A stretch of 64,000 bases of DNA from Candidatus Shapirobacteria bacterium (lineage in GTDB: Bacteria; Patescibacteriota; Microgenomatia; UBA12405). The notes under the pieces were generated by a model. The model made no database searches. It saw only the letters and a list, made by a program, of their open reading frames with translations, and had not been told where the DNA came from. Of the stretch, positions 5,026 through 60,430 are shown one piece after another; the stretch's first letter is position 1; each line of letters opens with the position of its first letter. The stretch is taken from NCBI GenBank assembly GCA_028704635.1, contig JAQWFB010000005.1, forward strand, positions 26,223 through 90,222, written 5' to 3'. Made by a program: the position numbers and the translations under genes.

Positions 5026-5026
5026 T

Positions 5027-42322: not shown

Positions 42323-42340
42323 TCTCAGGTATAATATTCC

Positions 42341-43663: not shown

Positions 43664-43664
43664 T

Positions 43665-44378
43665 ATGAAGAAATCAATAATAATTTTTATTTCTATTGGT
43701 GTTGTTATTTTAGTCTCATTAATTTTATTTTTTACTTTAAATAAAAAAAATACTCCTGAAACCAAAACTACCACTAAAACCACTAAAGCTTCTAAAAAAA
43801 TTGAATTGTCGGCTGACGAAAAACCCTATATTAATCTTATTCCCACTGTCGATGGTCATACCTTATCCCTTAAAATCACTCAAATTCCATCTAAATTTAC
43901 CAGTATCGATTACGAATTAATTTACACTGCTAAAGATGAAAATATAGAAATTGAAAAAGGAGTCAGCGGTACTATAAAAAATTCTGAATATTCTTCAGCT
44001 AAAGATCTTTTATTAGGTACTGCTAGTTGTACCAACGGTTGTAAATATAAATATGATGAAGGTGTCACTGGTGGAATTCTTACTTTAACTTTAGCCACCG
44101 ACAATAAAGAATATGTCGCTTACGAAACTCCATTTGTTTTAACTAATTCCGCCGACATTAACAAAGAAAAGAAAATAAGTTTGACTGAGGAAAATTTTAT
44201 TATCAATGGCACTGTCACTTCCAAAAGTGATTTCTTCATCGCCTTTAAAAATTTCCAATCCCTTTATTCTGTTTTCTCCAGCGGCAATGGTAAAGGCAAA
44301 ATTACTTCAATCGAGCCAACCACTGTTACTAAAACCGATTTAACCTCAATAACTGGTGATTACACCATTACTCAATAA
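43665..44378 (+). CDS. Hypothetical exported protein (N-terminal TM/signal anchor)
   Basis: Hydrophobic N-terminus, then a TKTT-rich linker. Confidence 0.45.
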   Translation: MKKSIIIFISIGVVILVSLILFFTLNKKNTPETKTTTKTTKASKKIELSADEKPYINLIPTVDGHTLSLKITQIPSKFTSIDYELIYTAKDENIEIEKGVSGTIKNSEYSSAKDLLLGTASCTNGCKYKYDEGVTGGILTLTLATDNKEYVAYETPFVLTNSADINKEKKISLTEENFIINGTVTSKSDFFIAFKNFQSLYSVFSSGNGKGKITSIEPTTVTKTDLTSITGDYTITQ

Positions 44379-45262
44379 TGGAATTTCACACTCCTGTACT
44401 GTTAACTGAAACCATCGATCTTCTTGATGTCCAAAAAAATAAAATTTATATTGACGGCACTCTTGGTCATGGTGGGCATACTCTAGAAATTCTTAAAAGA
44501 GGCGGCATTGTATATGGTGTCGATCAAGACCCAAAAAATTTAGAAATCGCCACCAATCGAATCAAAAAAGCAGGATTTGAAAAACAATTTTTTCCAATTC
44601 ACAATAATTTTAATCAATTAGAAAATATTGTTAATAAAAATATTAAACAAAAGATTGACGGTCTAATCATTGATCTTGGTCTTAGTCAAAATCAGCAAAC
44701 CGATCAAGACAGGGGGTTTTCATTCAATGATGAAAATTCTCTCGATATGAGATTAGATCCAGAAAACCAAGAATTGACCGCCGAAGAAATTATTAATACC
44801 TATGATTACGATCAACTTTTCGAAATATTTAGTAAATATGCCCAAGAGGTCTATAGTAAACCGATCACTTTAAAAATTATCAGGGAACGCCAAAAAAAAC
44901 CAATTAAAACAGCCACAAGATTGGCAAATATTGTTAGAGATTTTTATAAAGAACGCCACATTAAATCAAAAATTGATCCCAGTACTAAAATATTTTTAAG
45001 TCTCAGAATTGTGGTTAACGACGAATTTAACAATTTAAAAAATTTCCTTGTTCAAAGTTTAAGAACTGTTGATAAAAACAGTAATGTTTGTATCATTTCT
45101 TTTCATTCCGGTGAAGATCGAATTGTTAAGCAATTCATCAAAGAATACTCTGATCAAAAAGTTATTATCGAAAACAAAAAACCTACTAAAACCTCTTTTC
45201 AAGAAACAAAGAAAAACCCTTTATCTCGCTCAGCTACTCTAAGATCGTATAAAATAGTATAA
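44378..45262 (+). CDS. rsmH: 16S rRNA (cytosine1402-N4)-methyltransferase RsmH/MraW
   Basis: MEFHTPVLLTE...DGTLGHGGH.. signature; first gene of the dcw cluster. Confidence 0.85.
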   Translation: MEFHTPVLLTETIDLLDVQKNKIYIDGTLGHGGHTLEILKRGGIVYGVDQDPKNLEIATNRIKKAGFEKQFFPIHNNFNQLENIVNKNIKQKIDGLIIDLGLSQNQQTDQDRGFSFNDENSLDMRLDPENQELTAEEIINTYDYDQLFEIFSKYAQEVYSKPITLKIIRERQKKPIKTATRLANIVRDFYKERHIKSKIDPSTKIFLSLRIVVNDEFNNLKNFLVQSLRTVDKNSNVCIISFHSGEDRIVKQFIKEYSDQKVIIENKKPTKTSFQETKKNPLSRSATLRSYKIV

Positions 45263-45263
45263 G

Positions 45264-45521
45264 ATGTTAAACAAACCGTTTTTTTTACTCATCTTTTTTT
45301 TGATAATTATTCAGGTCATTTTTTCGTTTTATTATTCCAGTGAAATTATTAATCAGAATAATTTAATTAATCAAAATCAAATCAATCTTCAATCTATTAA
45401 GATTAAAAATCAAGAATTAGAGGAAGAACTGGCCACTTTATCATCTTTATCTAGAATCGAAGCCACTGCCAGTCAAAAAAATTACAAAAATCTAAAAGAA
45501 ACTATAAATCTTCAAAATTAA
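45264..45521 (+). CDS. ftsL: FtsL/DivIC-like small bitopic division protein
   Basis: 85 aa, N-terminal TM plus coiled coil (..NQELEEELATLSS..); position between rsmH and ftsI. Confidence 0.4.
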   Translation: MLNKPFFLLIFFLIIIQVIFSFYYSSEIINQNNLINQNQINLQSIKIKNQELEEELATLSSLSRIEATASQKNYKNLKETINLQN

Positions 45522-45522
45522 A

Positions 45523-47175
45523 GTGCAAAATTCAAGATCTAAAATATTATCTATCGCTCTCACTTTTTGTTTTATTATTGTTTCTTTTCGTTTTTTTTAT
45601 TGGCAGGTTTTAAAAGCCCCGGAATTAAAAGAAAAAGCTAAAAATCAAACTTACAAACTTGAAAAATTATTACCAGAACGTGGAAAAATATATTCTTCTG
45701 ATAATTTTCCTTTGGTTTTAAATCAAACTACTTACCAACTTTCCCTTTATAAACCAAATTTTAAAGAAGATTTGGATAAAATTTTAGACCAAATTGAACA
45801 AACTTATCCAAATTTTAAAACTGAAAATAGCGAATCTCTGGAAAAATTTAAAAATAATCCAAACCAAAAATGGATAACTTTCAACTCTGCCTTAAACGAA
45901 AAACAAAAAAATACGTTATATATACCCGGAATTGAATTTCAAAAAATAGAAAAAAGATTTTATCCAGAAAATTCCATGGCTAAAGATATTCTTGGAGCTA
46001 TTGGTAAAGATCTTAGCGGAAACCAAATTGGATATGGCGGTCTCGAAGCTTTTTATCAAAAACAATTACAAGGAAAAACTGGTTTCGTTTGGGGACCCCA
46101 AGATGCCACCGGAAAAACTATTTTAAATAAAAAAAGTTGGAGTTCAGACGCTGTTAATGGCAGAAATATTTTTACCAATATTAATCGCAGTGCTCAATTT
46201 TACGTTGAAAAACTTCTTCAAAAAGGTATTAATGAATTTTCTGCTGATTCTGGCTCAATTACCATTATAGAACCAAAAACCGGAGCTGTTTTAGCTATGG
46301 CGTCTCTCACTGCCACCAATTCTGCTACTATCAGTTCAATCAGAAATCCTGCCATTTCTAATCTTTTTGAACCAGGATCAATTTTTAAACCATTAATAGT
46401 TTCTATGGCTCTCGACACTAAAGCCATCGACACCAATTACATCTGTACAAAATGTAATCAACCCCATACTATCGGTAAATATAATATTAGTAATTGGGAT
46501 AGCGAATTTCATGCTGATTCTAGTCTCCGAGATATTATTAAAAATTCCGACAACATCGGCATGAGTTATATTATTGCCAAACTTGGTCTTAATAATTTTT
46601 TAAATTATTATCAAAAACTCGGTCTAACCCAAAAAACCGGCATTGATCTTCAAGGGGAAGCTAAACCGACAGTTAAAACTGAGTGGCCAGAAATCGATTT
46701 AGCCACTGCTTCTTTCGGGCAAGGAATTGTTGTTACTCAAATCGGCATGCTCCAAGCTTTTAACACTATCGCTAATGACGGTATTTTAGTCAAACCTAAA
46801 GTCGTCAGTTATTTTACTGAAAACGATAAAATTATTAAAAATAAGAATCAAAAAGAAATCCAAGTTTTTAATCAACAAACCATAAAAGATATTAAATCGA
46901 TTTTAAAATATTCAGTTGAAAATGGTGTTGTCGCCAAAATGAAGCCTGAAAATCTTGAGGTTTGTGCTAAAAGCGGCACAGCTCAAGTAGCTATCAGTGG
47001 CAGTTATGAAAATAATTCTTCCACTATTGCTTCATATATTGGTTTTTCTCCTTGTTATAATCCCAAATTTACTATGATTGTCACTATTAATAACCCAAAA
47101 ACCTCACCATGGGGATCAAGCACTGCTGCTCCAATTTGGTATGAATTAGCATCAAAATTAAACGATTTGTTATAA
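45523..47175 (+). CDS. ftsI: Peptidoglycan D,D-transpeptidase FtsI (class B PBP)
   Basis: N-terminal TM, ..GSIFKP.. (SxxK), ..SDN.., ..KSGTAQ.. motifs. Confidence 0.8.
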   Translation: MQNSRSKILSIALTFCFIIVSFRFFYWQVLKAPELKEKAKNQTYKLEKLLPERGKIYSSDNFPLVLNQTTYQLSLYKPNFKEDLDKILDQIEQTYPNFKTENSESLEKFKNNPNQKWITFNSALNEKQKNTLYIPGIEFQKIEKRFYPENSMAKDILGAIGKDLSGNQIGYGGLEAFYQKQLQGKTGFVWGPQDATGKTILNKKSWSSDAVNGRNIFTNINRSAQFYVEKLLQKGINEFSADSGSITIIEPKTGAVLAMASLTATNSATISSIRNPAISNLFEPGSIFKPLIVSMALDTKAIDTNYICTKCNQPHTIGKYNISNWDSEFHADSSLRDIIKNSDNIGMSYIIAKLGLNNFLNYYQKLGLTQKTGIDLQGEAKPTVKTEWPEIDLATASFGQGIVVTQIGMLQAFNTIANDGILVKPKVVSYFTENDKIIKNKNQKEIQVFNQQTIKDIKSILKYSVENGVVAKMKPENLEVCAKSGTAQVAISGSYENNSSTIASYIGFSPCYNPKFTMIVTINNPKTSPWGSSTAAPIWYELASKLNDLL

Positions 47176-47188
47176 TTGAATACTTTCA

Positions 47189-48490
47189 ATGGTTCAAAAA
47201 TTTAAAAACGTCTTTCTACATTTACCAAAAAGTTTTTTTTACAATTTAAAGTACAGTTTTCCAAGTAAAAAATTAACTCTAATTGGTATCACTGGAACAG
47301 ACGGTAAAACTACTACTTGCACCCTAATTAATGAAATATTAAAACAATCTGGTCTAAAGACTGGGTTAATTACCACTATTGGTGCAAAAATTGGCGATAA
47401 AGAAATAGATACTGGCTTTCATACCACCACTCCAGACCCATCTATTCTTCAAAAAATTTTTAATGATATGGTGAAGGCTAGAATAACCCATGTTGTTTGT
47501 GAAGTTACCTCGCATGCCCTTGATCAATATCGTTTTTGGGGTTGCAACTTTGAAGTTTCTGGTATTACCAACACCTCACATGAGCATCTCGATTATCACA
47601 AAGATATAGAATCTTATATTGGAACTAAAGCCAAGCTTTTTTCAGTTTCCAAAAGTGCTGTTTTAAATAAAGATGATCAATCTTTCGACCTTATAAAAAA
47701 ACAAATTAAAATCCCTTTTAAAACATTTAGTATTAAAAAAACTTCAGACTATCAAGCCCAAAAAATTAAATTAGATTCAAACTCATTAAGCTTCCATATT
47801 AATGGTCAAAAATTTACTACCGACAGTAATTACGAATATCAAGTCTACAATATCCTTTTAGCCACCGCAATTTGCTACAAATTAGGAATAAGTTCAGAAA
47901 TAATTCAACGAGTAATAAAACATTTTCCAGAAACAAAAGGTCGTCGAGAAGAAATTCAAAATGAACTCAAATTTAAAACCATTATCGATTTTGCCCACAC
48001 TCCATTTGCTCTCGAGTCATCACTTTCTTCACTTAAGAAAACTAACCAAGGAAAAACTATAGTCATTTTTGGGGCCACTGGTGGACGAGATCAAAGTAAG
48101 CGCCCAATAATGGGTGAAATTGTTTCTAAATTAGCCAACATTGCCTTAATCACTTCCGACGATACTAGAAATGAAAAAATAGAAAATATTAATAAACAAA
48201 TAATAAGTGGTATTGATCCAAAAAAATCAGAATTGGTTGATTATCAAGAAGTTAAAAATAAAAAACAAATTCAAAAAGTACTCGAATTATCCAATAAAAA
48301 GTTTATATATTTTAATATTCCCAATCGCCAAGATGCTTTTAATTTGGCCATAAAATTAGCCCAGCCTAACGATGTTGTTATCGCCTGCGGTAAGGGCCAT
48401 GAAACCACTATTCTCCATGGACACACCGAATATCCCTGGTCAGAAGCAGAAGCTTTTAGAACCGCTTTCAGACTTCGAAAAACAAAATAA
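47189..48490 (+). CDS. murE: UDP-N-acetylmuramoyl-L-alanyl-D-glutamate--diamino acid ligase MurE
   Basis: ..GITGTDGKTTT.. P-loop, ..TTPDPS.., ..TSHALDQYR.., C-terminal ..GKGHE.. Confidence 0.7.
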   Translation: MVQKFKNVFLHLPKSFFYNLKYSFPSKKLTLIGITGTDGKTTTCTLINEILKQSGLKTGLITTIGAKIGDKEIDTGFHTTTPDPSILQKIFNDMVKARITHVVCEVTSHALDQYRFWGCNFEVSGITNTSHEHLDYHKDIESYIGTKAKLFSVSKSAVLNKDDQSFDLIKKQIKIPFKTFSIKKTSDYQAQKIKLDSNSLSFHINGQKFTTDSNYEYQVYNILLATAICYKLGISSEIIQRVIKHFPETKGRREEIQNELKFKTIIDFAHTPFALESSLSSLKKTNQGKTIVIFGATGGRDQSKRPIMGEIVSKLANIALITSDDTRNEKIENINKQIISGIDPKKSELVDYQEVKNKKQIQKVLELSNKKFIYFNIPNRQDAFNLAIKLAQPNDVVIACGKGHETTILHGHTEYPWSEAEAFRTAFRLRKTK

Positions 48491-48491
48491 T

Positions 48492-49100
48492 ATGACCCAA
48501 TTCAATTTAAAAAATACTAACAGTATTGACCAAAATTACAAAAACGGTCTTCTTCCTCAAAGAAACAATAAAAATTTATTTTATTATCAAACCAGTAGCC
48601 GTTCAAACTTAAAAAATTTTAATTTAAGCTCCGAAAATCGCCGAATTTTAAGAAAAACAGAAGACTTCATTTTTGAAAAAATACCTTTAAAAAATTTCAA
48701 CTACGATTCCAAAGTTCAAAAAGAAATTGTCACCTGGGTAAAAACACTTGGTTGGGATTTTCCGGTCAGTTCAATTAAAAATGTTTTTAAAAATCATATT
48801 TTTAACTATCTATATATATGGAAAGATGAGCAAAAAAATATTATTGCTTATTCTCTTTGTTATTTTTCAAAAGACATTAGTCATATCGCCTATGTTTTTT
48901 ATAATCCAGAATTGGCTCATGGGAATCTACCTATTCGTTTAGTCTTACAAGTCATCATCGACAGCCAAGAATTAGGTTTAAAATATTGTTACCTTGGTCG
49001 CTTTTCACAAGACACCGGTTTTTACAAACGCAACATGCCAGGTTTCGAATATTTCAATAACCAAAATTGGATTCCATATACTAATTTACCTAAATTTTAA
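48492..49100 (+). CDS. Bpt/ATE-family aminoacyl-tRNA--protein transferase-like protein (GNAT fold); start revised to the ATG at 48492
   Basis: ..LSSENRRILRK.. and C-terminal ..GLKYCYLGRFSQDTGFYKRNMPGFEYFNNQNW.. align with the Bpt/ATE_N-ATE_C pattern; the ORF-track start at 48372 overlaps the murE 3' end. Confidence 0.45.
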   Translation: MTQFNLKNTNSIDQNYKNGLLPQRNNKNLFYYQTSSRSNLKNFNLSSENRRILRKTEDFIFEKIPLKNFNYDSKVQKEIVTWVKTLGWDFPVSSIKNVFKNHIFNYLYIWKDEQKNIIAYSLCYFSKDISHIAYVFYNPELAHGNLPIRLVLQVIIDSQELGLKYCYLGRFSQDTGFYKRNMPGFEYFNNQNWIPYTNLPKF

Positions 49101-49102
49101 TT

Positions 49103-50476
49103 ATGCATATTCATATTTTAGGAATTGCCGGAACTATGACCGCTTCATTAGCCGCCGCCCTTAAAAAAGAAGGACACTTGGTTACCGGTTCAGATCAAGA
49201 AAAAATATACCCACCCGTCAGCACTATTCTTAAAAAAGCCGACATTAAAATCAATTCCTCAAAAATTGATTCCACTATAGATTTGGCCATAATTGGTTCG
49301 TCATTTTCTAATTTTCAAAAAACTAAAGAAGAATTTGATCAAATCAAAAAATTAAATATTAAATATATTTCTGCTAGTGAATTCATTGGTCAAAATTTAG
49401 GCAAAGAAGACTCTATCTTAATTGCCGGAACCTACGGTAAAACTACCATTTCTTCTCTTGTATCCTGGATTTTTGATCAGGCCAATTTGAACCCCAATTA
49501 TATGTTTGGTGGAAAAGCTTTAAACCATTTTCCCTCAATCAATATTTCATCATCAAATTGGTCAATTATTGAAGCTGACGAATCAATCCATGGTCTCGAT
49601 ACCCAAGCTAAATTTTTATATTATCCAGTCAAATTTTTATTACTAACTAGTGCTGATTGGGAACATAAAGATTCCTACCCAACTGAAATTGAAAATTTTA
49701 ACGCCTTCAAAAAATTAATTTTAAATGTTCCAACTGACGGAATTTTATTTATAAATTCCCAAGGATATCAAACAAAAAAATTAAGTCTTTACTCAAAATC
49801 AAAAATAATTACCTATAATTCACCAACATCCGACTATTTTATTAAAAATATAACAATCAGAAAAAATTATTCCATTTTAGATATAAAAACTCCCCGAAAT
49901 ATTATTCAAGCCAAAACCAAATTAATTGGCCAGTTTAATTTTGAAAATATTTTAGCCGCTATTACCATTACTGACAGTCTAAACATTCCCCAAACTAAAA
50001 TTAAACAATCCATTTTTAAATTTAAAGGAATTACTCGTCGAATTGAAAAAATTTATAACCATAAAAATATTATTATATTTGATGATTTTGCCCAATCTTC
50101 CAATAGAATTAAATCAACTATTGCGGCTATAAAATTTCATTATCCAAAAAATAATATTAAAGTTTTATATCAACCTCATGCTTCCTTTATTCAACATAAG
50201 GAAAGTCTAAAAGAATTTAAAAACGTTTTTGATTCAGTTTCCGAAGTCGTTTTATCTAAATTAAGTTTTAATAATAAAGCCGAAAAAAATAATCGTGTTA
50301 CCGCTAAAGATTTCAAAGAGGTGATTGGTGATAAATTAATATATCTTCCTGTCGATGAAGATATATGTTCTTTTTATAAAAAAAATCTCAAAAGTGGCGA
50401 CATTCTAATTAATATGAGTTCTGGCGGTTTTAGTGGAAATAAAATTGTAAAATCTATTATTAATTCTTTAAAATAA
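49103..50476 (+). CDS. murC: MurC/Mpl-family Mur ligase (UDP-N-acetylmuramate--L-alanine ligase or Mpl)
   Basis: ..HIHILGIAGTMTASLA..GSDQEKIYPPVST.. closely resembles the MurC/Mpl N-terminus; ..AGTYGKTT.. P-loop. Confidence 0.6.
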   Translation: MHIHILGIAGTMTASLAAALKKEGHLVTGSDQEKIYPPVSTILKKADIKINSSKIDSTIDLAIIGSSFSNFQKTKEEFDQIKKLNIKYISASEFIGQNLGKEDSILIAGTYGKTTISSLVSWIFDQANLNPNYMFGGKALNHFPSINISSSNWSIIEADESIHGLDTQAKFLYYPVKFLLLTSADWEHKDSYPTEIENFNAFKKLILNVPTDGILFINSQGYQTKKLSLYSKSKIITYNSPTSDYFIKNITIRKNYSILDIKTPRNIIQAKTKLIGQFNFENILAAITITDSLNIPQTKIKQSIFKFKGITRRIEKIYNHKNIIIFDDFAQSSNRIKSTIAAIKFHYPKNNIKVLYQPHASFIQHKESLKEFKNVFDSVSEVVLSKLSFNNKAEKNNRVTAKDFKEVIGDKLIYLPVDEDICSFYKKNLKSGDILINMSSGGFSGNKIVKSIINSLK

Positions 50477-50479
50477 TTT

Positions 50480-51808
50480 ATGTCCAGATATATCATTAAC
50501 GGCGGTAAACCACTCAAAGGTGAAGTTTCTATTAGAGGTGCTAAAAACGCCAGTTTCAAACAAATAATTGCCTCCATGTTAACTGATAAAACAGTTCAAT
50601 TAAATAATGTCCCTCAAATTTCCGATGTTAAAATTACCACTAGTATCGCCAAAAGTCTTGGATGCCAAATAACTCAAACAGGGGAGCATAGTCTTGAACT
50701 AACCACTTCTAAAATAATTAATTCCACCGTTCCCAGCGGTACTGGCGAAAAATCTAGAACCTCATTTATGTTTGTCGCTCCATTACTTACTAGAACTGGA
50801 ACTGCCATTGTCCCAACCCCAGGCGGTGACAAATTAGGAGATCGACCATTAGATCGTCTTTTTGATTGTTTCTCTCAAATGAATATTAAAGTTTCCGAAA
50901 CCGAAAATAATATTACTTTTAATACCGACAAAATTGTTGGTACCCATTATACTTTTACAAAACCTTCTCACACGGTCACTGAAGTAATTATTATGACTGC
51001 TGTTCTCGCCAATGGCGAAACAATCATCGATAATGCCGCTCTTGAGCCAGAAATTGATGATTTAATTTTAATGTTAAATCAAATGGGAGCCAAAATTCAA
51101 AGAGATTCCAAAAATAACAAAAGAATAATCATTCAAGGCGTATCCAAATTAAATGGAACTGAACATGATGTAATTTGCGATCGAAACGAAATTGTCACTT
51201 TTGCTTGTGCTGCCTTAGCCACCAAGGGTTCAGTTTCTATTTTTAGAGTCAAACCCAACGTTGTTCAAACATTTTTGGAAATTATTGAAAAAATGGGGGC
51301 TAAAATTAAAACCGGCAACGATGAAATTTATGTCGAATGGGTTAAACCCCTTACCAATATTGATATCGAAACCGAACCAGAACCTGGATTTATGACCGAT
51401 TGGCAAGCTATTTTCTCTGTTCTTTTAACTCAGACTGTCGGCTGTAGTTCTATTATTGAAAGAGTTTATCCTAGTAGATTTCAACACATCGAAAATCTTA
51501 AAAAGATGGGGGTTAAAGTTAATTTCTTCAATCCAGAAATAAACAATTCTAGAGAATATTATCAATTTAATAAAGAAAGTGATCGCCCAGAATATTTTCA
51601 TGGTGTTAAAATTTATGGCCCAACCAAATTAAAACCGGCCAATTTTGTTATTAAAGATCTTCGGGCTGGAGCTTCAGCCACCATTGCAGCCCTAACTGCA
51701 TCAGGAAAATCAACTATCGACGGAGTTGAATATATTGAGCGTGGATACGAAAAATTAGCTGAGCGTCTTTGGTCTTTAGGTGCTAACATAGAATATATAA
51801 AAACCTAA
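50480..51808 (+). CDS. murA: UDP-N-acetylglucosamine 1-carboxyvinyltransferase
   Basis: ..INGGKPLKGEVSIRGAKNAS.. EPT-family N-terminus; length 442 aa. Confidence 0.85.
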   Translation: MSRYIINGGKPLKGEVSIRGAKNASFKQIIASMLTDKTVQLNNVPQISDVKITTSIAKSLGCQITQTGEHSLELTTSKIINSTVPSGTGEKSRTSFMFVAPLLTRTGTAIVPTPGGDKLGDRPLDRLFDCFSQMNIKVSETENNITFNTDKIVGTHYTFTKPSHTVTEVIIMTAVLANGETIIDNAALEPEIDDLILMLNQMGAKIQRDSKNNKRIIIQGVSKLNGTEHDVICDRNEIVTFACAALATKGSVSIFRVKPNVVQTFLEIIEKMGAKIKTGNDEIYVEWVKPLTNIDIETEPEPGFMTDWQAIFSVLLTQTVGCSSIIERVYPSRFQHIENLKKMGVKVNFFNPEINNSREYYQFNKESDRPEYFHGVKIYGPTKLKPANFVIKDLRAGASATIAALTASGKSTIDGVEYIERGYEKLAERLWSLGANIEYIKT

Positions 51809-51812
51809 TTTT

Positions 51813-52847: not shown

Positions 52848-53368
52848 AACTACAACAAGAAATTGAGAAATATATCGGCCTACCTTACAGTAAGAATATC
52901 CTTAAAGACGGTAAAATAATCAAAGAGCAATTTCTTGGAGGTAAAGGTAATTGTCGACAAATTGCCACTGAAACCATCAGACTCGCTCAAAAACAAAAAA
53001 TAGATTTAACTCAGTTAAACAATCAAGAATTTTATAATTTTCAAAAAAAGAACCATATTGGCATCGATTGTTCCGGCCTTGCTTGCCAATTATTAAATTT
53101 TTATTTTAATTCTGAATTAAATCCTCGCAAAACTTCTGCCAATATGCTCACTTCTGCTCCAATCTCACAAGAAATAAAACCAAGTGAGATTAAAACAGGT
53201 GATTTAGTCCGACAAAAAAACGGCCACCATATTTTATTTATCATCGAAAAACAGGGTAATGTTATTAATTATGTCGACAGCTCCATCTCTGGCAGGGGAG
53301 TAAAATACGGACAAACCAATCTTACCGACAAATCCTTTATCAACCAGGGTTTTTTCAGACTAAATTAA
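52829..53368 (+). CDS. NlpC/P60 (C40) family peptidase without a signal peptide; start revised to 52829 (MARTKLEL..)
   Basis: ..IGIDCSGLACQLL.. catalytic Cys motif and ..GDLV...GHHILFI.. His motif; 19-nt overlap with the mraY 3' end. Confidence 0.5.
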   Translation: MARTKLELQQEIEKYIGLPYSKNILKDGKIIKEQFLGGKGNCRQIATETIRLAQKQKIDLTQLNNQEFYNFQKKNHIGIDCSGLACQLLNFYFNSELNPRKTSANMLTSAPISQEIKPSEIKTGDLVRQKNGHHILFIIEKQGNVINYVDSSISGRGVKYGQTNLTDKSFINQGFFRLN

Positions 53369-53369
53369 T

Positions 53370-53528
53370 TTATTTTTCCTCAATCAATTCCCTATACTTT
53401 AATGGATTTAAAGATAAAATTTCCACTTCAGTCCCACATTCAGGACATTCAATAATATCTCCCACCATCGTGGCTTCTGTTAATTCAATTTCTGTTTCAC
53501 AATCTGGACAAATAACTTTTTCGTTCAT
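53370..53528 (-). CDS. LysW-like zinc-ribbon protein (52 aa), absent from the ORF track because it is under 60 aa
   Basis: MNEKVICPDCETEIELTEATMVGDIIECPECGTEVEILSLNPLKYRELIEEK: CPxC..E[IL]ELxE...GD[IV][IV]ECPxCG.E[VL]E[IV]LSLNPL matches the amino-group carrier protein LysW zinc-ribbon core; lacks the canonical ..EDWGE C-terminal tail; no clear SD. Confidence 0.55.
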   Translation of the reverse strand: MNEKVICPDCETEIELTEATMVGDIIECPECGTEVEILSLNPLKYRELIEEK

Positions 53529-53568
53529 ATTTTATTAAAATTAATAACTAGTATAATTAAACTATTAT

Positions 53569-54390
53569 ATGGCAAATACACCTTTAATTAAATTAGAAAA
53601 TGTTTATTTAAAAAGAGAAGATTTAAACGAGACCGGATCAGCCAAAGATCGAGCCATGATTTTTCAAATTGAAAATTTAAAAAAACAGGATTTTAAAACT
53701 GCTGTCATCTCCAGTACTGGTAATGCCGCCATTTCCGCCGCCCATTTTTGCCACCTCAATCAAATCAACCTAACTATTTTTGTTTCCCCTAAAATCAATC
53801 AAGCTAAATTTGATTTACTTAAAAAAGATGGTGGTCAAATTTTTATTACCGATCAACCAATCAGTGAATCCATAAAATTTTCTAAAAAAAATCATGCTTA
53901 TCTTCTTCGTCAATCCACCGACCCAAGTGCCCTAATTGGCTACCAAGAAATTGGTAAAGAACTAATGAATAAACTACCCCAAATTACCAGTATTTTCGTT
54001 CCAGTCGGCAGCGGCACCACCCTTTTGGGAATTTCTCAAGCACTGCCATCATCAGTTAAAATTTATGCTGTTCAACCAGCCAGTAATTGTCCTTTATCTA
54101 AATTTTTTGATTCAGACTACCAACCAGAAATAGAAAATATTACCGACGCCCTTTCCGCCAAATATCTTCCTTTAAAATCTCAAATAATTTCCGCCATTAA
54201 AAATAGTGGTGGCACTGGCTTAATTGTTCAAAATAATGAAATTTTAGAAGCCCAAAAAATATTAGACTTAAACGAAATTAAAACCTCTCTAGAGGGCGCT
54301 TTAGCCTTTGCAGGTTATAAAAAAGCCATCAAAAATAACCTAAACATAGGCAATTATCCAGTAGTAATTTTAACCGGATGTCAAAGATAA
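53569..54390 (+). CDS. PLP-dependent enzyme, fold type II (tryptophan-synthase-beta/threonine-synthase-like), short form of 273 aa
   Basis: ..TGSAKDRAM.. catalytic Lys motif, ..VISSTGNAAISAA.., Gly-rich ..VPVGSGTT.. Confidence 0.65.
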   Translation: MANTPLIKLENVYLKREDLNETGSAKDRAMIFQIENLKKQDFKTAVISSTGNAAISAAHFCHLNQINLTIFVSPKINQAKFDLLKKDGGQIFITDQPISESIKFSKKNHAYLLRQSTDPSALIGYQEIGKELMNKLPQITSIFVPVGSGTTLLGISQALPSSVKIYAVQPASNCPLSKFFDSDYQPEIENITDALSAKYLPLKSQIISAIKNSGGTGLIVQNNEILEAQKILDLNEIKTSLEGALAFAGYKKAIKNNLNIGNYPVVILTGCQR

Positions 54391-55484
54391 ATTTAGAAAA
54401 TATTATTAATCAATCCCCTTATATTTTCTTTTTTCTGGTTGTCGATAAATTTTTAGACATCGAAATTCCTCAATTAAAAAATTTTGAAAAAATCTATCTT
54501 TCTGATTATTCATCGATCAAAGAAAAAAACAGTGGCAAACTACTATCAAACCCAAAAATTATTGACTATATTTTAAAAAAATCTCAAAAAACTAAACTTA
54601 TTCCCGCCATCATTCCCTTTAAGCCATCGGCCAAAATTGATTTAATTTGTCAAAAATATAATTGGATAAATATAAGTAATCCTGGACCAATCAATCGTTT
54701 TTTGGAAGACAAAATTAAATTTGCCAAACTTTGTCAAAAATACAAATTACCCACAATTCCTTTTACTATCGATACTTTCTCTCACCAAAATTTTTTGAAA
54801 TATCAAAAACTTTACAATAAAAAATTAGTTCTCCAGACCCATTTTGGTTGGGCTGGCAATAGTACATTTTCGGCCGAATCTTGGGATGAAATTAAAGATA
54901 AAATTTCTTCTAATGTTATTGTAAAATATAGCCCTTTTATTCAATCTTCCTACTCTTTACTAAATAATTGTTGTCTTACTAAATTTGGTCTAATTCAAAG
55001 TCCACCTGCTCTTCAATACACTGGAATTTTTCCCTACACTAAAAATCCCTTCACTACTGTCGGTCGCCAATGGCCATCTTTTGCTCCCCTAAAAATAATT
55101 AAAGAAATTAATAAAATAACCGAAAATTTTAGTAAAATTTTAAAAGAAATTAATTATAAAGGTTTTTTTGGTCTCGATTTTTTAATTTATAAAAATAAAG
55201 TTTTTTTACTAGAATGCAATCCTCGTCTTACTGCTTCCTTTAGTTTTTATACAAAAATGGAACAAAAACAAAATATCACTCCTCTTTTCTATTTCCATAT
55301 TGCCGAATTATCAAAAATTGATTATCAAATTAATCTAAAACAAGAACAATTAAGATTCAATAATAAAAAAATTATCGGTTCTGAACTAACCCCAAAAGAT
55401 AAAAATAATTACACTTGCCAAAAGTTAAACTTTGACTATCCCTTATCAAAAACCACCAACCCTATCTCTCTCAAAAAAAAATAA
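54378..55484 (+). CDS. ATP-grasp ligase with a Ddl-like C-terminal domain and a ~100-aa N-terminal extension
   Basis: ..NRFLEDKIKFAKLCQKYKLPTIPF.. and ..GFFGLDFLIYKNKVFLLECNPRLTASFSF.. parallel Ddl ..[28 protein letters not shown]..; lacks the Ddl N-terminal HGxxGEDG motif. Confidence 0.5.
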   Translation: MSKINLENIINQSPYIFFFLVVDKFLDIEIPQLKNFEKIYLSDYSSIKEKNSGKLLSNPKIIDYILKKSQKTKLIPAIIPFKPSAKIDLICQKYNWINISNPGPINRFLEDKIKFAKLCQKYKLPTIPFTIDTFSHQNFLKYQKLYNKKLVLQTHFGWAGNSTFSAESWDEIKDKISSNVIVKYSPFIQSSYSLLNNCCLTKFGLIQSPPALQYTGIFPYTKNPFTTVGRQWPSFAPLKIIKEINKITENFSKILKEINYKGFFGLDFLIYKNKVFLLECNPRLTASFSFYTKMEQKQNITPLFYFHIAELSKIDYQINLKQEQLRFNNKKIIGSELTPKDKNNYTCQKLNFDYPLSKTTNPISLKKK

Positions 55485-56651
55485 ATGAAAGAAAATAAGT
55501 CACCTCTTCTATTTCTGGTTTTCAGTTTAGTTTTTATCGGGCTGATTTTTATTTCTATTTCATCACTAGGCGAAGCCAGTTCTTCAATTGGAGATAAATT
55601 CTTTTATATTAAAAAACAAGGATTTTGGCTTGTTTTGGGAATAATTTCTTTTTATGTAACTTCAAAAATAAATATTAAAACTATTAAAAAATTCTCTTTC
55701 GCCCTTTATGCGATTTCTATTTTGGGTTTAATTTTAGTTTTAATTCCAAGTCTAGGCAATGAAGCTCTCGGCGCCAGACGTTGGTTAAATTTAGGTTTTA
55801 CTAGCATTCAACCTTCAGAAATTTTAAAATTAACTTCAATTATTTATTTTTCTTCTCTTTTTTCAAAAAAGGAAAATCTCAATATTAAAAACCTAATTTT
55901 TTACCTTGGGCTTCCCTTCATTCTAATAATTATAGAACCAAATTTAAGCACCGCTATTTTAATTTCAGCCATTGTTAGTTCCATTTATTATCTCTCCGGG
56001 GGAGACATCGTTCCTTTGTTTAGTATTTTTAGTATTATTTTAGTAATTAGTATTCCACTAATTTTTTTATCACCATATCGATCAGCTAGATTAAAAACTT
56101 TTTTAGAACCGCAACAAAATCAAGAAACTTCATCGTACCACAGCAATCAAATTATCTTAACTCTTTCTTCTGGAGGATTTTTTGGTAAGGGTTTTGCTAA
56201 CTCAGATCAAAAATATAAATTCCTCCCCAAAATTTCTACCGATTCAATTCTTGCCGTTATTGGCGAAGAGGTTGGTTTTATAGGAATTTTTGCAGTTTTA
56301 TTAGTTTATCTTTCTTTAATAAATTATCTTTTAAGATTTTCTCAAACAATAGACGATCCATTTCAAAGTTTAATAGTATCCGGAAGCGCTTGTTGGATCG
56401 CTTATCAAAGCCTGATTAATATTTCTGCCATTACTGCCCTCATTCCTCTAACTGGCGTTACCCTCCCATTTATTTCTTATGGCGGTTCCTCTCTTATTAC
56501 TCTTTTTATTGTTATTGGTCTAGTCAGAAATATCGAAAAAAATCAAAAAATATTGTTATACTCAAAGAGTGAACAAAGTAAAAAAGACGATAATAATCAC
56601 CGGAACACACTTAACTCCAGCACTAGAACTCATTCGTCAACTGAAAGCTGA
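55485..56651 (+). CDS. ftsW: SEDS-family peptidoglycan glycosyltransferase FtsW
   Basis: About 10 TM segments, ..PLTGVTLPFISYGGSS.. SEDS motif; dcw position. Confidence 0.8.
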   Translation: MKENKSPLLFLVFSLVFIGLIFISISSLGEASSSIGDKFFYIKKQGFWLVLGIISFYVTSKINIKTIKKFSFALYAISILGLILVLIPSLGNEALGARRWLNLGFTSIQPSEILKLTSIIYFSSLFSKKENLNIKNLIFYLGLPFILIIIEPNLSTAILISAIVSSIYYLSGGDIVPLFSIFSIILVISIPLIFLSPYRSARLKTFLEPQQNQETSSYHSNQIILTLSSGGFFGKGFANSDQKYKFLPKISTDSILAVIGEEVGFIGIFAVLLVYLSLINYLLRFSQTIDDPFQSLIVSGSACWIAYQSLINISAITALIPLTGVTLPFISYGGSSLITLFIVIGLVRNIEKNQKILLYSKSEQSKKDDNNHRNTLNSSTRTHSSTES

Positions 56652-57645
56652 TAAAAAGAACGATTGGCAAATAAATTACATTGGTCGAAAAAATAATTCT
56701 AGTGTCGATTACACTCCTTCGATTGAATCAAAAATTATCCCAAAAATAGGTATAAAATTTTATTCGATCAACTGCGGCAAACTGGATCGTCGTTGGCTTC
56801 CAAACACTATTAAAGGCCTTCCCCAAACCACCGCCTCTTTATTTGAATCATTAAAATTAATTAAAAAAATAAAACCAGATATTATTGTTTCTTTTGGTGG
56901 ATATGTTTCTGTTCCAGTAATTATTAGTGGTTTTCTTAAAAAAATACCATCTATTACTCATGAACAAACCCTAACCAATAGTTTAACTACCAAAATTAAT
57001 AGTTTTTTTGTTGATAAAATTGCCCTTTCTTTCAAAAATCAACATCAAAAAGAAAAACTTCCTAAAAATAAAATAGTTGTCACTGGAAATCTTTTAAGAC
57101 AAGAGATTTTTCATCCTCAAAAAAATAAAATAGGAAATGATATTGATATTTTTATAACCGCGGGAAATCAAGGCTCTCACACAATAAATCTTTTAATAAA
57201 AAAAATTCTTCCTAAATTAAAAGACTATTATATTATCCATCAAACAGGCAAAAATGATTTTAATAGTTTTAAACAATTAACCAATATTTACCAAAAATAT
57301 CAGGCTTTTAGTTATTTGGAATCAAGCGACATGGCCTATGTTTTAAATAAAACAAATTTAATTATTAGCCGTTCCGGTGCCAACACTAGCCAAGAAATTG
57401 TCGCATTAAACAAAAAATCAATTTTAATTCCCTTAAAAATCAGTCAACAAAATGAACAATTATTAAATGCTCTCTGGGTTAAAGAAAAAAATCCCCAAAA
57501 TACGGAAATAATAGAAGAAAAAGATATTACTGAAAAAAATATTTTAGAAAATATAAATAAATTAATTACTAATAAAACAAAAAAAGTCGTCATTAAAAAT
57601 ACTGATAATCTAAAACTTTTAAACCTAATTCATGAAATTCTTTAA
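56569..57645 (+). CDS. murG: UDP-GlcNAc--lipid I N-acetylglucosaminyltransferase MurG
   Basis: ..IIITGTHLTPALEL.., ..KPDIIVSFGGYVSVP.., ..HEQTLTNS.. MurG pattern. Confidence 0.8.
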   Translation: MNKVKKTIIITGTHLTPALELIRQLKADKKNDWQINYIGRKNNSSVDYTPSIESKIIPKIGIKFYSINCGKLDRRWLPNTIKGLPQTTASLFESLKLIKKIKPDIIVSFGGYVSVPVIISGFLKKIPSITHEQTLTNSLTTKINSFFVDKIALSFKNQHQKEKLPKNKIVVTGNLLRQEIFHPQKNKIGNDIDIFITAGNQGSHTINLLIKKILPKLKDYYIIHQTGKNDFNSFKQLTNIYQKYQAFSYLESSDMAYVLNKTNLIISRSGANTSQEIVALNKKSILIPLKISQQNEQLLNALWVKEKNPQNTEIIEEKDITEKNILENINKLITNKTKKVVIKNTDNLKLLNLIHEIL

Positions 57646-58015
57646 AATTTTTCTATTTGTCATTTTTTTTACTAGCCTTTCTTTTTCTATTTATTCATTT
57701 ACTAATTCTTCTCAAGAAAAAATCAATCCGATTTCAGATAAAAACAATTTTTATTTTCAATTAGAACATGGTTTAAAAACTGCTCAAATTAATATTACAA
57801 AAAACACTATTAAGGATTATCAAAATCAATTAGAATTCTATATAATTAATGAAAGTAACAATCCAACCAAAATTATTTTATCTACTCAAAAAAATCCCTA
57901 TTGGCAGATTGCTTCTTTACAAGAAATTTTAAAAACAGCTAAAATTAATAATAAGCAACTGCAATTAGTTAATCTAAGTATCAACCATCCATATGCAACA
58001 TTCAAAAATAATTAA
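57632..58015 (+). CDS. Small bitopic protein at the ftsQ position (FtsQ/DivIB-like, tentative)
   Basis: N-terminal TM, 127 aa, immediately upstream of ftsA; no strong motif. Confidence 0.3.
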   Translation: MKFFKIFLFVIFFTSLSFSIYSFTNSSQEKINPISDKNNFYFQLEHGLKTAQINITKNTIKDYQNQLEFYIINESNNPTKIILSTQKNPYWQIASLQEILKTAKINNKQLQLVNLSINHPYATFKNN

Positions 58016-59249
58016 TGTAATCGACATTGGCACTTCAAAAGTTACCACACTAGTTGGGCAGTATTTAGATGCTGATGATAAATTTAACATCATTGCCGTT
58101 TCCTCAATTCCATCTCTTGGTTTTCGAAAAGGCCAAATAATTAACTTAGAACAAGCTTCTCAAACCATCACTCAAAGCATCGAATCTGCCGAAAGAATGG
58201 CTGGTTTTCAAATAAACAGTGCCAATATTTCTATTTCTGCTCCTCATATTGAATCAATTAATTCTCATGGTGTTGTTGCCATCAGTAATCCAAATGGTGA
58301 AATAGATATTAACGATATCACTCGTGTAACCGAAGCCGCCAAAGCTATTTCTTTGCCAAGTGGTAAAGAAATAATTCATATTATCCAAAGAAAATTTACT
58401 GTCGACGGCCAAGAAGGTGTCATTGACCCAATTGGAATGAACGGCATCCGACTCGAAGTTGAAGCTCATTTAATTTTAGCCTCTAGCCCGGCTCTTAAAA
58501 ATCTAAAAAAATGTCTTGAAGATATTGGTATTAAAGTCGAATCTTTAACTTATGCTGGTCTCAGCACAGCTACTGCTGCTCTAACCGACACTGAAAAAGA
58601 ACTCGGCGTTGCTCTGGTTGATATTGGTGGTAGTATTACCAATATTACTATTTTTATCGAAGGTTCCCCAGTATTTTCATCAGTCATTCCCATTGGTGCC
58701 AACAATGTTACTAATGACCTTGCTATTGGTCTTCGATTTTCCATTGAAGACGCTGAAAAAATAAAATTAAAATTAGCCAAATTGTTCGAAAACAAAAAAT
58801 TTGAAGATGAAGTTGAATTGTCCCATTTTGACATCCATTCCGAAGACAAGAAAAAAATTTCTCTCCAGACTGCCATTAATGGCATAATTAAACCTCGACT
58901 TGAAGAAATTTTTTGTTTAATTTATTCACAAATTGAAACCAGTGGTTTTCATCAATCAATTCCTGCCGGAATTGTTTTAACTGGTGGCGGCGCCATGACT
59001 GTTAATGCTAAAGAAATTTGCAACCGAACTATTCCTCTTCCACTAAGAATTGCCAATCCACCAAAAGTAGGTGGTATAGTTGATGATATTATGAATCCAG
59101 CTTATACTAGCACTATTGGTCTTTTGCTTTACAATAAAAATGTCAAAAAAGGCAGTGGTTCAAATACTAAAGGTATTAAAGCCCCCAAAATTTCCATGAG
59201 TGGATTTTTTGATAAGATCAAAAAAATACTAGAACCACTTTTACCCTAA
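57993..59249 (+). CDS. ftsA: Cell division protein FtsA
   Basis: Actin-fold motifs ..[14 protein letters not shown].., ..[11 protein letters not shown].., ..VLTGGGA.. Confidence 0.85.
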
Positions 59250-59251
59250 AT

Positions 59252-60430
59252 ATGGGATTAATTAAAACTCTTACTGGACAATTTGCCAAAATAAAAGTCA
59301 TCGGAGTCGGTGGCGGTGGTAATAATGCCATTAATTCAATGATTACCGAAGATGCCATCAAAGGTGTCGACTTCATCGCCGTTAATACTGATTCTCAAGC
59401 CCTCTTAAATTCTCTTGCTTCAATCAAAATCCAAATTGGTGAAAAATTAACCAAAGGTCTTGGTGCTGGAGGTAATCCCCAAATGGGACAAAAAGCCGCC
59501 GAAGAATCAAAAGAAAGAATCAAAGAAGTTTTACAAGGCACCGATATGGTTTTTGTCACTGGTGGTATGGGTGGCGGCACATGCACTGGAGCCGCTCCAA
59601 TTATTGCCCAAATCGCCAAAAAAGAATTAGGAATTTTAACTATTGGTGTTGTTACTAAACCATTTTTGTTTGAAGGCACTCGTCGTATGACCAATGCCGA
59701 AGAAGGAATTTCTCAATTAAGAGAAAATGTTGACACTTTAATTGTTATTCCCAATCAAAAAGTCATGGAAGTTGTCAACAATAAGGCAACACTTTTAGAA
59801 GCCTTTAAAATTGCTGATTCTGTTTTAAGCAAAGGAACTAAAGCCATCGCTGATTTAATCACTGTTCCTGGATTAATTAATCTAGATTTTGCCGATATTA
59901 AGGCTGTTATGAGTAATGCCGGCTCTGCTCTTATGGGAACAGGTGAAGCCGAAGGAGAAAATAAAATCCAAAAAGCCGTTGAAGACGCCATTGATTCTCC
60001 ATTAGTTGAAGTTAATATTGAAGGTGCTAGAGGAGTTTTGATTAATGTTACTGGCGGACCCGATATCACCATGTCTGAAATTGAAGAAGCCGCTAGAAAT
60101 ATTACTGAACGAACCGCTCCAGACGCCAATATTATTTTTGGAGCTACCATCGACAAAGAACTCAAAGGCAAAGTTAAGATTTCTGTTATCGCGACTGGGT
60201 TTGACACTAGTCGGGCTAATCTTTATCAGCATATTAAAAAACCACAACCAACTCTAATAAATTTACCAAATCAACCCAAACCCCAAACACAGGAAAATAA
60301 AAATACATTAGAAGAATCAAATCTTAGTGATAATCGAATAAAAGAATTCTTAAATACTAAAGAAGTTCCCACTGGCATCGATATCATCGACGAATACGAT
60401 ATCCCTGCTTTCCTGAGAAAAAATAAATAA
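59252..60430 (+). CDS. ftsZ: Cell division GTPase FtsZ
   Basis: ..[17 protein letters not shown].. and ..[12 protein letters not shown].. tubulin signature. Confidence 0.9.

Follow-up and report, generated by a model that had tools for sequence, protein, structure and literature searches.

The cytoplasmic Mur pathway is, to our knowledge, regarded as nearly universal and as a classic antibiotic target, with few exceptions, e.g., MurD2/MurL and the MurT/GatD modification. In Escherichia coli K-12, the canonical division and cell wall (dcw) cluster runs mraZ-rsmH-ftsL-ftsI-murE-murF-mraY-murD-ftsW-murG-murC-murB-ddl-ftsQ-ftsA-ftsZ. Here we describe the dcw cluster of a Candidatus Shapirobacteria bacterium, contained in a stretch of 64,000 nucleotides of contig JAQWFB010000005.1 (hereafter the window). 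This cluster shares with the canonical one a tightly packed, one-strand backbone (rsmH-ftsL-ftsI-murE...mraY...ftsW-murG...ftsA-ftsZ), but lacks mraZ, murF, murD, a canonical murC, murB, ddl, and a recognizable ftsQ. It differs further in having a MurC-family gene after murE, murA inside the cluster, five extra genes, and a MurE that lacks domain 1. Several described enzymes bear on these differences. ATE1 and Bpt acylate the N-terminal Asp or Glu of proteins, and FemX illustrates that tRNA-dependent transferases can act on wall precursors. Ligases of PF02655, PylC and MfnD for example, generate amide bonds of the Lys-epsilon or gamma-Glu kind, gamma-D-Glu-diamino acid bonds are typically cleaved by NlpC/P60 enzymes (YkfC, for instance, cuts L-Ala-gamma-D-Glu-Lys), and Mpl ligates preformed peptides to UDP-linked N-acetylmuramic acid (UDP-MurNAc).

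Four of the extra genes, encoding an NlpC/P60-like peptidase, a LysW-like zinc-ribbon protein, a ThrC-like pyridoxal phosphate (PLP) enzyme, and an ATP-grasp ligase, form one cytoplasmic module that is widespread in the Candidate Phyla Radiation (CPR). In the loci compared, this module always lies beside murD or occupies the murD slot; in other CPR lineages it accompanies murD. The sequence-only reading of the window spoke of extra non-dcw genes inserted into the cluster, which is misleading, since these genes constitute a conserved, fusion-linked module tied to the position of murD. As a whole, this is the dcw cluster typical of its lineage, a Shapirobacteria-like clade of Microgenomates (CPR), and the most eroded member of a comparative series. 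Our tentative interpretation, in which we place somewhat less than even confidence, is that positions 1 and 2 of the stem peptide may be made noncanonically in these organisms, with the module supplying the position-2 residue.

The gene order from rsmH to ftsZ given by the sequence-only reading, including the lysW-like gene on the opposite strand, was upheld at its coordinates by the listing of open reading frames (ORFs) together with Pfam and NCBIfam matches. The features are given below; the G+C content of the window is approximately 30%.

42341..43663, plus strand: glycine--tRNA ligase, upstream of the cluster (NCBIfam NF003211, 568 bits vs. cutoff 312)
43665..44378, plus strand: protein of 237 amino acids (aa) with an N-terminal membrane segment (hydrophobic residues 1-28)
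44378..45262, plus strand: rsmH (MraW), 16S rRNA methyltransferase (Pfam Methyltransf_5, 279 bits)
45264..45521, plus strand: FtsL/DivIC-like bitopic division protein (weak DivIC match, E = 7e-4; N-terminal membrane segment; conserved position)
45523..47175, plus strand: ftsI, class B penicillin-binding protein (Pfam Transpeptidase, 204 bits, and PBP_dimer)
47189..48490, plus strand: murE, short form (TIGR01085, 346 bits vs. cutoff 257)
48492..49100, plus strand: ATE1/Bpt-like aminoacyl-tRNA transferase, 202 aa (Pfam ATE_C)
49103..50476, plus strand: MurC/Mpl-family ligase (murC, 234 bits vs. cutoff 335; mpl, 171 bits vs. cutoff 389)
50480..51808, plus strand: murA (TIGR01072, 420 bits vs. cutoff 393)
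51813..52847, plus strand: mraY (Pfam Glycos_transf_4, 105 bits; TIGR00445, 164 bits, under the cutoff of 192)
52793..53368, plus strand: NlpC/P60-like cysteine peptidase (Pfam NLPC_P60, 23.5 bits vs. cutoff 23; start possibly ATG 52829)
53370..53528, minus strand: LysW-like zinc-ribbon protein (PF21344, 49.6 bits vs. cutoff 27)
53569..54390, plus strand: ThrC-like fold-type II PLP enzyme, 273 aa (Pfam PALP, 158 bits)
54378..55484, plus strand: ATP-grasp ligase of PF02655 type (ATP-grasp_3, 32 bits)
55485..56651, plus strand: ftsW (Pfam FTSW_RODA_SPOVE, 300 bits)
56569..57645, plus strand: murG, GTG start (Pfam GT28 N- and C-terminal domains)
57632..58015, plus strand: 127-aa bitopic protein in the FtsQ position (membrane segment, residues 1-24)
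57993..59249, plus strand: ftsA (Pfam FtsA and SHS2_FTSA)
59252..60430, plus strand: ftsZ (Pfam Tubulin and FtsZ_C)

The whole 64-kb window was probed by phmmer with E. coli MraZ, MurB, MurC, MurD, MurF, Ddl, MurI, and FtsQ as queries. No homologue of mraZ, murB, murD, murF, ddl, or murI was found anywhere in it, nor did the MurC and FtsQ queries find one; the two Mur ligases of the window, used as queries themselves, detected no further Mur ligases. The sequence-only reading was thus correct that murF does not follow murE, that murD is missing between mraY and ftsW, that no mraZ precedes rsmH, and that canonical ddl and murB are absent. As a positive control, the E. coli queries pick up MraZ, MurB, Ddl, MurF, MurD, and MurI in relatives, and absence from loci of the window type is therefore not a matter of sensitivity.

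A species-level scan, with one genome per species, yielded at least 120 relatives; 80 loci were taken and their ORFs labeled with the window proteins and the E. coli queries, and 58 of these loci span murE to ftsW. The comparison of dcw synteny that the sequence-only reading had called for shows that the arrangement recurs in all 58, which is not chance. The gene order is essentially identical throughout: rsmH-ftsL-ftsI-murE(short)-ATE-murC-like-(murA)-mraY-NlpC-lysW(minus strand)-PALP-ATPgrasp-ftsW-murG-(127 aa)-ftsA-ftsZ-IleRS-rodA, where IleRS denotes isoleucyl-tRNA synthetase. None of the 58 loci contains murB, murD, murF, ddl, murI, mraZ, or a canonical murC by the same queries. murA is present in 49 and missing from the other nine; its presence in the window cluster was noted correctly by the sequence-only reading, but is not unusual, as these lineages as a group normally have it there. 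Close homologues of the ATP-grasp protein number 428 and, where named, belong to Candidatus Shapirobacteria or Woesebacteria. Many public records of metagenome-assembled genomes (MAGs) with this CPR cluster (L007-L009, L014-L016, and others; accessions CAY/CAZ) are titled 'uncultured Gammaproteobacteria bacterium', labels that are evidently wrong.

A second set of 80 loci came from a metagenome scan with distant ATP-grasp relatives, and five more were added through look-ups of MurF homologues. Five arrangements were distinguished:

(i) L173: murF-mraY-murI-murD-ftsW-murG
(ii) L169: GlyRS-x-mraZ-rsmH-ftsL-ftsI-murE(short)-murC-murB-murA-murF-mraY-murD-ftsW (GlyRS, glycyl-tRNA synthetase)
(iii) L132: mraY...murD-lysW(minus strand)-PALP-ATPgrasp-ftsW; L144, L152, L157, L159, and L160 run on as ...ftsW-murG-murC(canonical, 452 bits)-murB
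(iv) type B, about 21 loci: stand-alone NlpC-murD-lysW(minus strand)-PALP-ATPgrasp, outside the dcw cluster
(v) type A, 16 loci including L170-L172: mraZ-rsmH-ftsL-ftsI-murE(short)-ATE-murC-like-murB-murA-(ddl)-murF-mraY-NlpC-lysW(minus strand)-PALP-ATPgrasp-ftsW-murG-x-ftsA-ftsZ

Further type A members, L089 and L093 among them, fall within L089-L117. The window type equals type A minus mraZ, murB, ddl, and murF. Similarity to the window is about the same for L169, L173, and type A, all of which give MraY scores of 437-452 bits. One type A MurF has the same sequence as an NCBI protein from a "Candidatus Shapirobacteria" MAG. Among the at least 120 matches listed in a profile search with the sister-lineage MurF (all E ≤ 1e-181), every one was of type A or L169-like. 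The MurD proteins of type B score 188-243 bits against TIGR01087 (cutoff 212). L169 has neither the ATE-like gene nor the module.

Across these lineages, the slot between mraY and ftsW holds murI and murD, murD alone, murD with the trio of lysW-like, PLP enzyme, and ATP-grasp genes, or the module alone. In L173, the slot holds the glutamate racemase gene murI. These contents make the module the positional counterpart of D-Glu supply. The sequence-only reading had placed a PLP enzyme plus an ATP-grasp ligase in the slot of murD, and this holds exactly, L173 having murI and murD there. So precise a correspondence, the existence of a PALP-ATP-grasp fusion, and the acyl-phosphate chemistry that ATP-grasp and Mur ligases are generally known to share would suit a direct replacement: the ATP-grasp enzyme would be the position-2 ligase, a MurD analogue acting on UDP-MurNAc-L-Ala, the PLP enzyme would supply the D-amino acid, and the ATE-like protein would be unrelated. 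We regard this as improbable. The same ATP-grasp family stands beside a bona fide MurD in L132, L147, and the approximately 21 type B loci, so that its ancestral role is not that of MurD; moreover, the LysW-like partner, the NlpC/P60 fusions, the gain of the ATE-like gene, and the divergence of MurC would be left unexplained.

Fusions tie the module together at the protein level. We searched an ATP-grasp profile against 1.8 billion representative proteins and obtained 2049 relatives at E ≤ 1e-3. Among them are fusions of the PLP enzyme with the ATP-grasp domain (P0274, 782 aa; P0176) and of the ATP-grasp domain with NlpC/P60 (P0180, P0196, P0231, P0265), as well as one protein of 622 aa that joins ATP-grasp to a GNAT acetyltransferase (P0257). 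A further protein of the same ATP-grasp family, P0266 (795 aa), has a C-terminal half without assignment. In L147 (3-11420), wall genes surround the trio in a different order: MurJ, a YfiH/PgeF-family protein (Pfam Cu-oxidase_4), a 289-aa ORF without annotation, MurD, a nucleotidyltransferase, a NUDIX protein, lysW on the minus strand, the PLP enzyme, the ATP-grasp ligase, and a canonical MurC. That the trio is a small amino-acid or cofactor pathway unrelated to peptidoglycan, frozen in a conserved operon, therefore strikes us as extremely improbable: in at least four arrangements the trio is found with murD or ftsW, even where it has been translocated out of the dcw cluster, and in L147 it sits among MurJ, the YfiH/PgeF-family protein, MurD, and MurC. 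For such a pathway speak the orientation of the lysW-like gene on the opposite strand, the dCMP deaminase, MazG, and small exporter genes interleaved in some loci, and the principle that synteny in one clade is no proof of function.

The small unrelated genes that lie inside the module in some lineages (L093 8315-8761, L170 13044-13481, L002 8656-8964, L132 9464-9949) encode a dCMP/cytidine deaminase, MazG, or a small multidrug-export protein. L132 also carries, directly upstream of murD in its dcw cluster (4302-5678), a SpeA/LysA-like PLP decarboxylase (arginine decarboxylase, 209 bits; lysA, 157 bits), which hints at a diamine step, or a step from diaminopimelate (DAP) to Lys, linked to the wall peptide.

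The individual module proteins carry conserved features of their folds. LysW-like proteins pass PF21344 in all four cluster types that contain them (35-50 bits vs. cutoff 27), and 58 of 62 relatives, drawn from all of these types, end in ...EE(E)K. The GIDCSGL and G.H motifs of the NlpC-like protein, which hold the catalytic Cys and His, are invariant in 74 orthologues, and the protein has no membrane segment. The PLP enzyme contains the motifs NPTGS.KDRG and SSSGNAA and has its best NCBIfam matches in archaeal-type ThrC, with 95 bits for the window protein and 145-172 bits for longer forms (cutoffs 301-421); by equivalog score it appears to be ThrC-like only and not a threonine synthase. A racemase of the serine-racemase type was considered for this enzyme and rejected, as the motifs and best families are ThrC/CysK-like. 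For the ATP-grasp protein, an AlphaFold2 model (predicted local distance difference test, pLDDT, 92) gave generic Foldseek matches, i.e., biotin carboxylase/PurK at template-modeling (TM) scores of about 0.6, and a profile search of the PDB gave at best carbamoyl phosphate synthetase (E ~0.006). The sequence-only reading called this ligase Ddl-like, a label that does not stand: it scores only 16-17 bits against Ddl models with cutoffs of 246-310, shows neither Dala_Dala_lig_N nor Dala_Dala_lig_C, has no Ddl among its top fold matches, and is adjoined by a canonical Ddl in sister clusters. Replacement of Ddl or MurD by this protein was rejected on the ground that each of them coexists with it in relatives. 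Four soluble proteins of the window lineage are markedly shorter than those of type A (PLP enzyme, 273 vs. ~307 aa; ATP-grasp, 368 vs. ~450; ATE-like, 202 vs. ~261; NlpC-like, 191 vs. ~236), the PLP enzyme having lost its ThrC-type N-terminal segment.

The fifth extra gene, 48492..49100, encodes what looks like a putative aminoacyl-tRNA transferase of the ATE1/Bpt type. Its start is the ATG at 48492, just past the murE stop, rather than 48372, giving 202 aa, like its orthologues. The ATE_C domain of Pfam was matched by 17 of 17 diverse members of the family, and NCBIfam arginyltransferase models match the window protein at E = 6.5e-9; these scores of 35-47 bits are under the cutoffs of 170-267, and no ATE_N domain was detected in the protein. 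Sequence and profile searches of this protein against the PDB returned nothing, or only generic GNATs. Its AlphaFold2 model (pLDDT 91.6) has as best Foldseek matches in the PDB the ATE1 enzymes of human, yeast, and K. lactis (E = 1e-8, TMq 0.65-0.71), followed by MprF, aminoacyl-phosphatidylglycerol synthases, and FemX, i.e., other aminoacyl-tRNA transferases. That the upstream GlyRS feeds the ATE-like enzyme was considered and rejected, because the GlyRS linkage also occurs in L169, which has no ATE gene.

The ligase encoded next to it resembles Mpl more than MurC in pairwise comparison (28% identity and 149 bits vs. E. coli Mpl; 22.6% and 86 bits vs. E. coli MurC). In neighbor-joining trees with one Mpl reference, it groups with Mpl, and the MurC proteins of murD-containing relatives group with E. 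coli MurC. The same division is seen at the gene position after murE: the ligase of L169, which has murD, groups with MurC of E. coli and CPR bacteria, and those of type A and the window with E. coli Mpl. Of the metagenome loci, 16 have ATE, short MurE, or the MurC-like ligase and lack murD and canonical murC, and 27 have murD or canonical murC and no ATE, short MurE, or MurC-like ligase; none of the 43 mixes the two. Two fusions involve this ligase, with the ATE-like protein in a single ORF in L163 and with an NlpC-like domain in L155.

These patterns bear on a more conventional explanation, which we consider doubtful though a serious contender: murB, murD, murF, ddl, and possibly murI would have been relocated in the ordinary way, the MurC-like ligase would be a fast-evolving MurC that adds L-Ala, and the extra genes would decorate the peptide. 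Under such accessory tailoring, the ATE-like protein would act like FemX on the side-chain amine of Lys or DAP, the NlpC/P60 protein would be a precursor hydrolase, and the PLP enzyme and ATP-grasp ligase would make and attach a substituent of the side chain or alpha-carboxyl, comparable with the D-aspartate ligase/racemase pair of enterococci. Genes do leave the cluster: murA is gone in nine of the 58 loci, ddl from many type A clusters, and the type B murD block lies outside dcw. The fold matches of the ATE-like protein include FemX and MprF, NCBIfam ranks murC above mpl for the ligase, and the trio coexists with murD in other lineages and so is not in itself a MurD replacement. Against relocation and tailoring, type A has every other precursor gene in order with murD alone missing; the closest structure is that of ATE1 rather than FemX; a canonical ligase occupies the murC position in L169, with murD present, and an Mpl-like one wherever the ATE gene occurs; and the ATE-like gene and murD occur together in none of the 43 informative loci.

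The sequence-only reading offered an either/or, with the missing genes elsewhere or stem-peptide synthesis partly noncanonical, and the comparison splits it by gene. murB, ddl, and murF are quite probably elsewhere in the genome rather than lost, a judgment made from the comparison of loci. In type A, the canonical murB, ddl, and murF sit between the MurC-like gene and mraY; the ancestor shared with type A thus carried them in its cluster, which they left in the window lineage. Relocation is common in the group, as the many type A clusters that retain murF but have no ddl and the nine murA-less loci of the window type suggest, and the retention of murA, whose product is useless without MurB, suggests that murB is elsewhere. 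The transpeptidase motifs of FtsI are intact (SxxK at 286, SxN at 342, KSG at 483), implying donors that end in D-Ala-D-Ala. In contrast, the absence of murD and canonical murC points, with partial support, to a noncanonical route.

The same observations weigh on salvage, which we hold to be very improbable. Here, the organisms would be episymbionts in which the loss of murB, ddl, murF, and murD is real and host muropeptides serve to rebuild the precursors, with the NlpC/P60 enzyme trimming and the Mpl-like ligase re-attaching them, comparable with recycling in Gram-negative bacteria. The Mpl-like character of the ligase would fit, as would an NlpC/P60 protein that is cytoplasmic and, in L155, fused to the ligase, and so would the progressive erosion from type A through the window type to murA-less loci. 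However, murA is kept in 49 of the 58 loci, the MurE active site is intact, intact FtsI implies pentapeptide donors, and type A has a full de novo gene set beside the same ATE and Mpl-like genes.

The noncanonical route that we favor, worked out from gene content and fold assignments, would proceed as follows. The module would make D-glutamate on a carrier protein and so take the place of MurI. L-Glu would be tethered by the ATP-grasp ligase to the Lys at the C-terminus of the carrier, the LysW-like protein, and inverted there by the PLP enzyme, and the NlpC/P60 peptidase would release D-Glu, for use by MurD where murD is present. In murD-less clusters, the ATE1-like transferase would take L-Ala from Ala-tRNA and attach it to the free alpha-amine of D-Glu while this is still tethered, forming the bond that MurD normally makes, and the Mpl-like ligase would then join L-Ala-D-Glu to UDP-MurNAc, bypassing both MurC and MurD. 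MurE, MraY, and MurG would act as usual after this dipeptide ligation. In this complete form, i.e., with carrier-tethered D-Glu, L-Ala from tRNA through the ATE-like enzyme, Mpl-like dipeptide ligation, and no stepwise addition by MurC and MurD, in a large CPR clade, the scheme is unlikely to be right in every part.

Several points weigh against this route. These genomes may simply encode MurD and a canonical MurC at another place, and the murD-less lineages may be one clade, in which case the loss of murD, the gain of ATE, and the divergence of MurC could reflect a single event. The PLP enzyme resembles threonine synthase and the beta/gamma-replacement enzymes, not the serine/aspartate racemase subgroup; from its sequence, a racemase role is not obvious, and its product may be another amino acid. 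The ATP-grasp ligase does not belong to the RimK/LysX type, and Lys forms the end of the carrier where LysW has Glu. The Mpl-like placement comes from a distance tree with one Mpl reference, and the NCBIfam murC model outscores mpl for this ligase (234 vs. 171 bits, both under cutoff). Finally, the fusion of ATE-like protein and MurC-like ligase is seen in one ORF, that of L163, and may reflect an artefact of sequencing.

The short MurE does not belong to these changes. Its N-terminal UDP-binding domain 1 is missing, TIGR01085 being aligned from model position 77, so that the protein starts at about E. coli residue 86-102; the 53 orthologues compared are 400-442 aa long, and only 13 nucleotides (nt) separate ftsI from murE in the window. 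The P-loop (GTDGKTT) and K224 are conserved, and the DNPR motif of meso-DAP-adding enzymes is replaced by DDTR, invariant in the 53 orthologues, with Arg kept, Asn changed to Asp, and Pro to Thr. Short MurE proteins of about 400-464 aa with DDTR for DNPR occur throughout the group (window 47189-48490; L169 5173-6435; L170 2859-4253). L169 has short MurE together with murD, and short MurE is therefore not part of the murD-less switch. The idea that MurE lost its UDP-binding domain through acting on free D-Glu was rejected for the same locus, which pairs the short form with canonical MurC and MurD.

At the downstream end of the cluster, the 83-nt overlap of ftsW and murG reported by the sequence-only reading is real: GTG 56569 is the sole in-frame start that keeps the N-terminal G-loop of MurG (residues 9-16). 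This start lies within the ftsW tail, and the first glycine-rich loop (56569-56620) reads ITGTHLTPA, compared with the usual form GGTGGH. ftsQ is absent from its canonical position, as the sequence-only reading had said; the E. coli FtsQ query gave no match, and the position holds the 127-aa bitopic protein (57632..58015), for which no family match was found in Pfam or NCBIfam. This protein is kept in most related loci, with 137-152 aa in type A, and may be a minimal FtsQ/DivIB substitute.

Upstream, recO, a dimeric-type GlyRS, and the 237-aa membrane-anchored protein precede rsmH (41762-44378). The 237-aa protein (43665..44378) has no family match in Pfam or NCBIfam, and the order GlyRS, 237-aa protein, rsmH recurs in relatives. 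In L169, a homologue of this protein lies between GlyRS and mraZ, which indicates that mraZ was deleted precisely between the 237-aa gene and rsmH in the window lineage. Outside the cluster, the window also encodes RecO, GlyRS, and IleRS. Positions 1-41700 are mostly a large surface-polysaccharide region, where a phosphoglycerate kinase is also encoded; the region contains six GT1 and four GT2 glycosyltransferases, four GT4-domain matches that likely overlap the GT1 set, two DegT aminotransferases, two UDP-glucose dehydrogenases, hexapeptide acyltransferases, two Wzx-type flippases, and one Bac_transf initiating transferase.

Literature searches on Shapirobacteria/Microgenomates peptidoglycan, LysW and ATP-grasp in Patescibacteria, CPR dcw clusters, and arginyltransferase with MurD found no description of this arrangement. 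A conserved, fusion-supported gene set stands in place of MurI and MurD in a whole uncultured radiation, i.e., at least 120 species-level genomes of the window type plus several sister lineages, and an N-end-rule-type tRNA transferase and a lysine-biosynthesis carrier protein have apparently been recruited to a wall cluster. If the proposed route is true, stem-peptide main-chain synthesis dependent on tRNA and on a carrier protein would be seen here for the first time, and amino-group-carrier-protein chemistry and tRNA-dependent peptide-bond formation would extend into core wall synthesis. It would also explain the supply of D-Glu in organisms of minimal metabolism and give a reason why murD is apparently absent when CPR genomes are surveyed for pathway presence. 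The five proteins are all small and soluble, which leaves the hypothesis open to direct in vitro test.

Among described systems, the LysW/LysX carrier system of lysine and arginine biosynthesis in Thermus and archaea shares with the module a LysW-fold zinc ribbon, an acidic tail, and an ATP-grasp partner, and in both a peptidase could release the product. The tails differ, that of the window protein ending in EEK (Lys) and that of LysW in Glu, the attachment site within its EDWGE tail; the ATP-grasp partner is of PF02655 type in the window, with matches to ATP-grasp_3 only, and RimK/LysX in the LysW system. The other partners of the window carrier are a ThrC-like PLP enzyme and an NlpC/P60 protein, in a context of cell-wall synthesis, and no kinase, reductase, aminotransferase, or M20 genes of LysZ/LysY/LysJ/LysK type were found within about 10 kb. 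The MurD2/MurL system of Xanthomonas yields position-2 D-Glu in the absence of MurI through a one-way L-to-D step that consumes ATP and has a genetic link to murD (PMC8788868). It is a precedent in kind for an ATP-driven route, although its proteins are unrelated to the window module.

The window ATE-like protein has its fold in common with ATE1/Bpt and FemX/FemABX, ATE1 being the best match. Compared with ATE1 and Bpt, however, the family is much shorter (~200-260 aa), lacks ATE_N, and is encoded between murE and a MurC-family ligase; compared with FemX, the proposed acceptor would be the amine of D-Glu, in the main chain of the stem peptide and not in a branch. The ligase scores higher against E. 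coli Mpl, the UDP-MurNAc:L-Ala-gamma-D-Glu-meso-DAP ligase of recycling, than against MurC and groups with it. In contrast to Mpl, it is under both NCBIfam cutoffs and is the only MurC-family gene in the dcw cluster, and its proposed substrate would be a de novo dipeptide instead of a recycled tripeptide. Judged by their sequences, the window proteins belong to the LysW ribbon, ATE_C, NlpC/P60, PALP, and ATP-grasp folds, and not to the LysW proper, Bpt, Ddl, ThrC, MurC, or Mpl families. The CysO-CysM-Mec-MoeZ cysteine pathway of Mycobacterium tuberculosis follows the same four-part logic, with a carrier, an ATP-dependent enzyme acting on its C-terminus, a fold-type II PLP enzyme, and a releasing peptidase; all four window proteins come from different families, and the likeness is one of logic.

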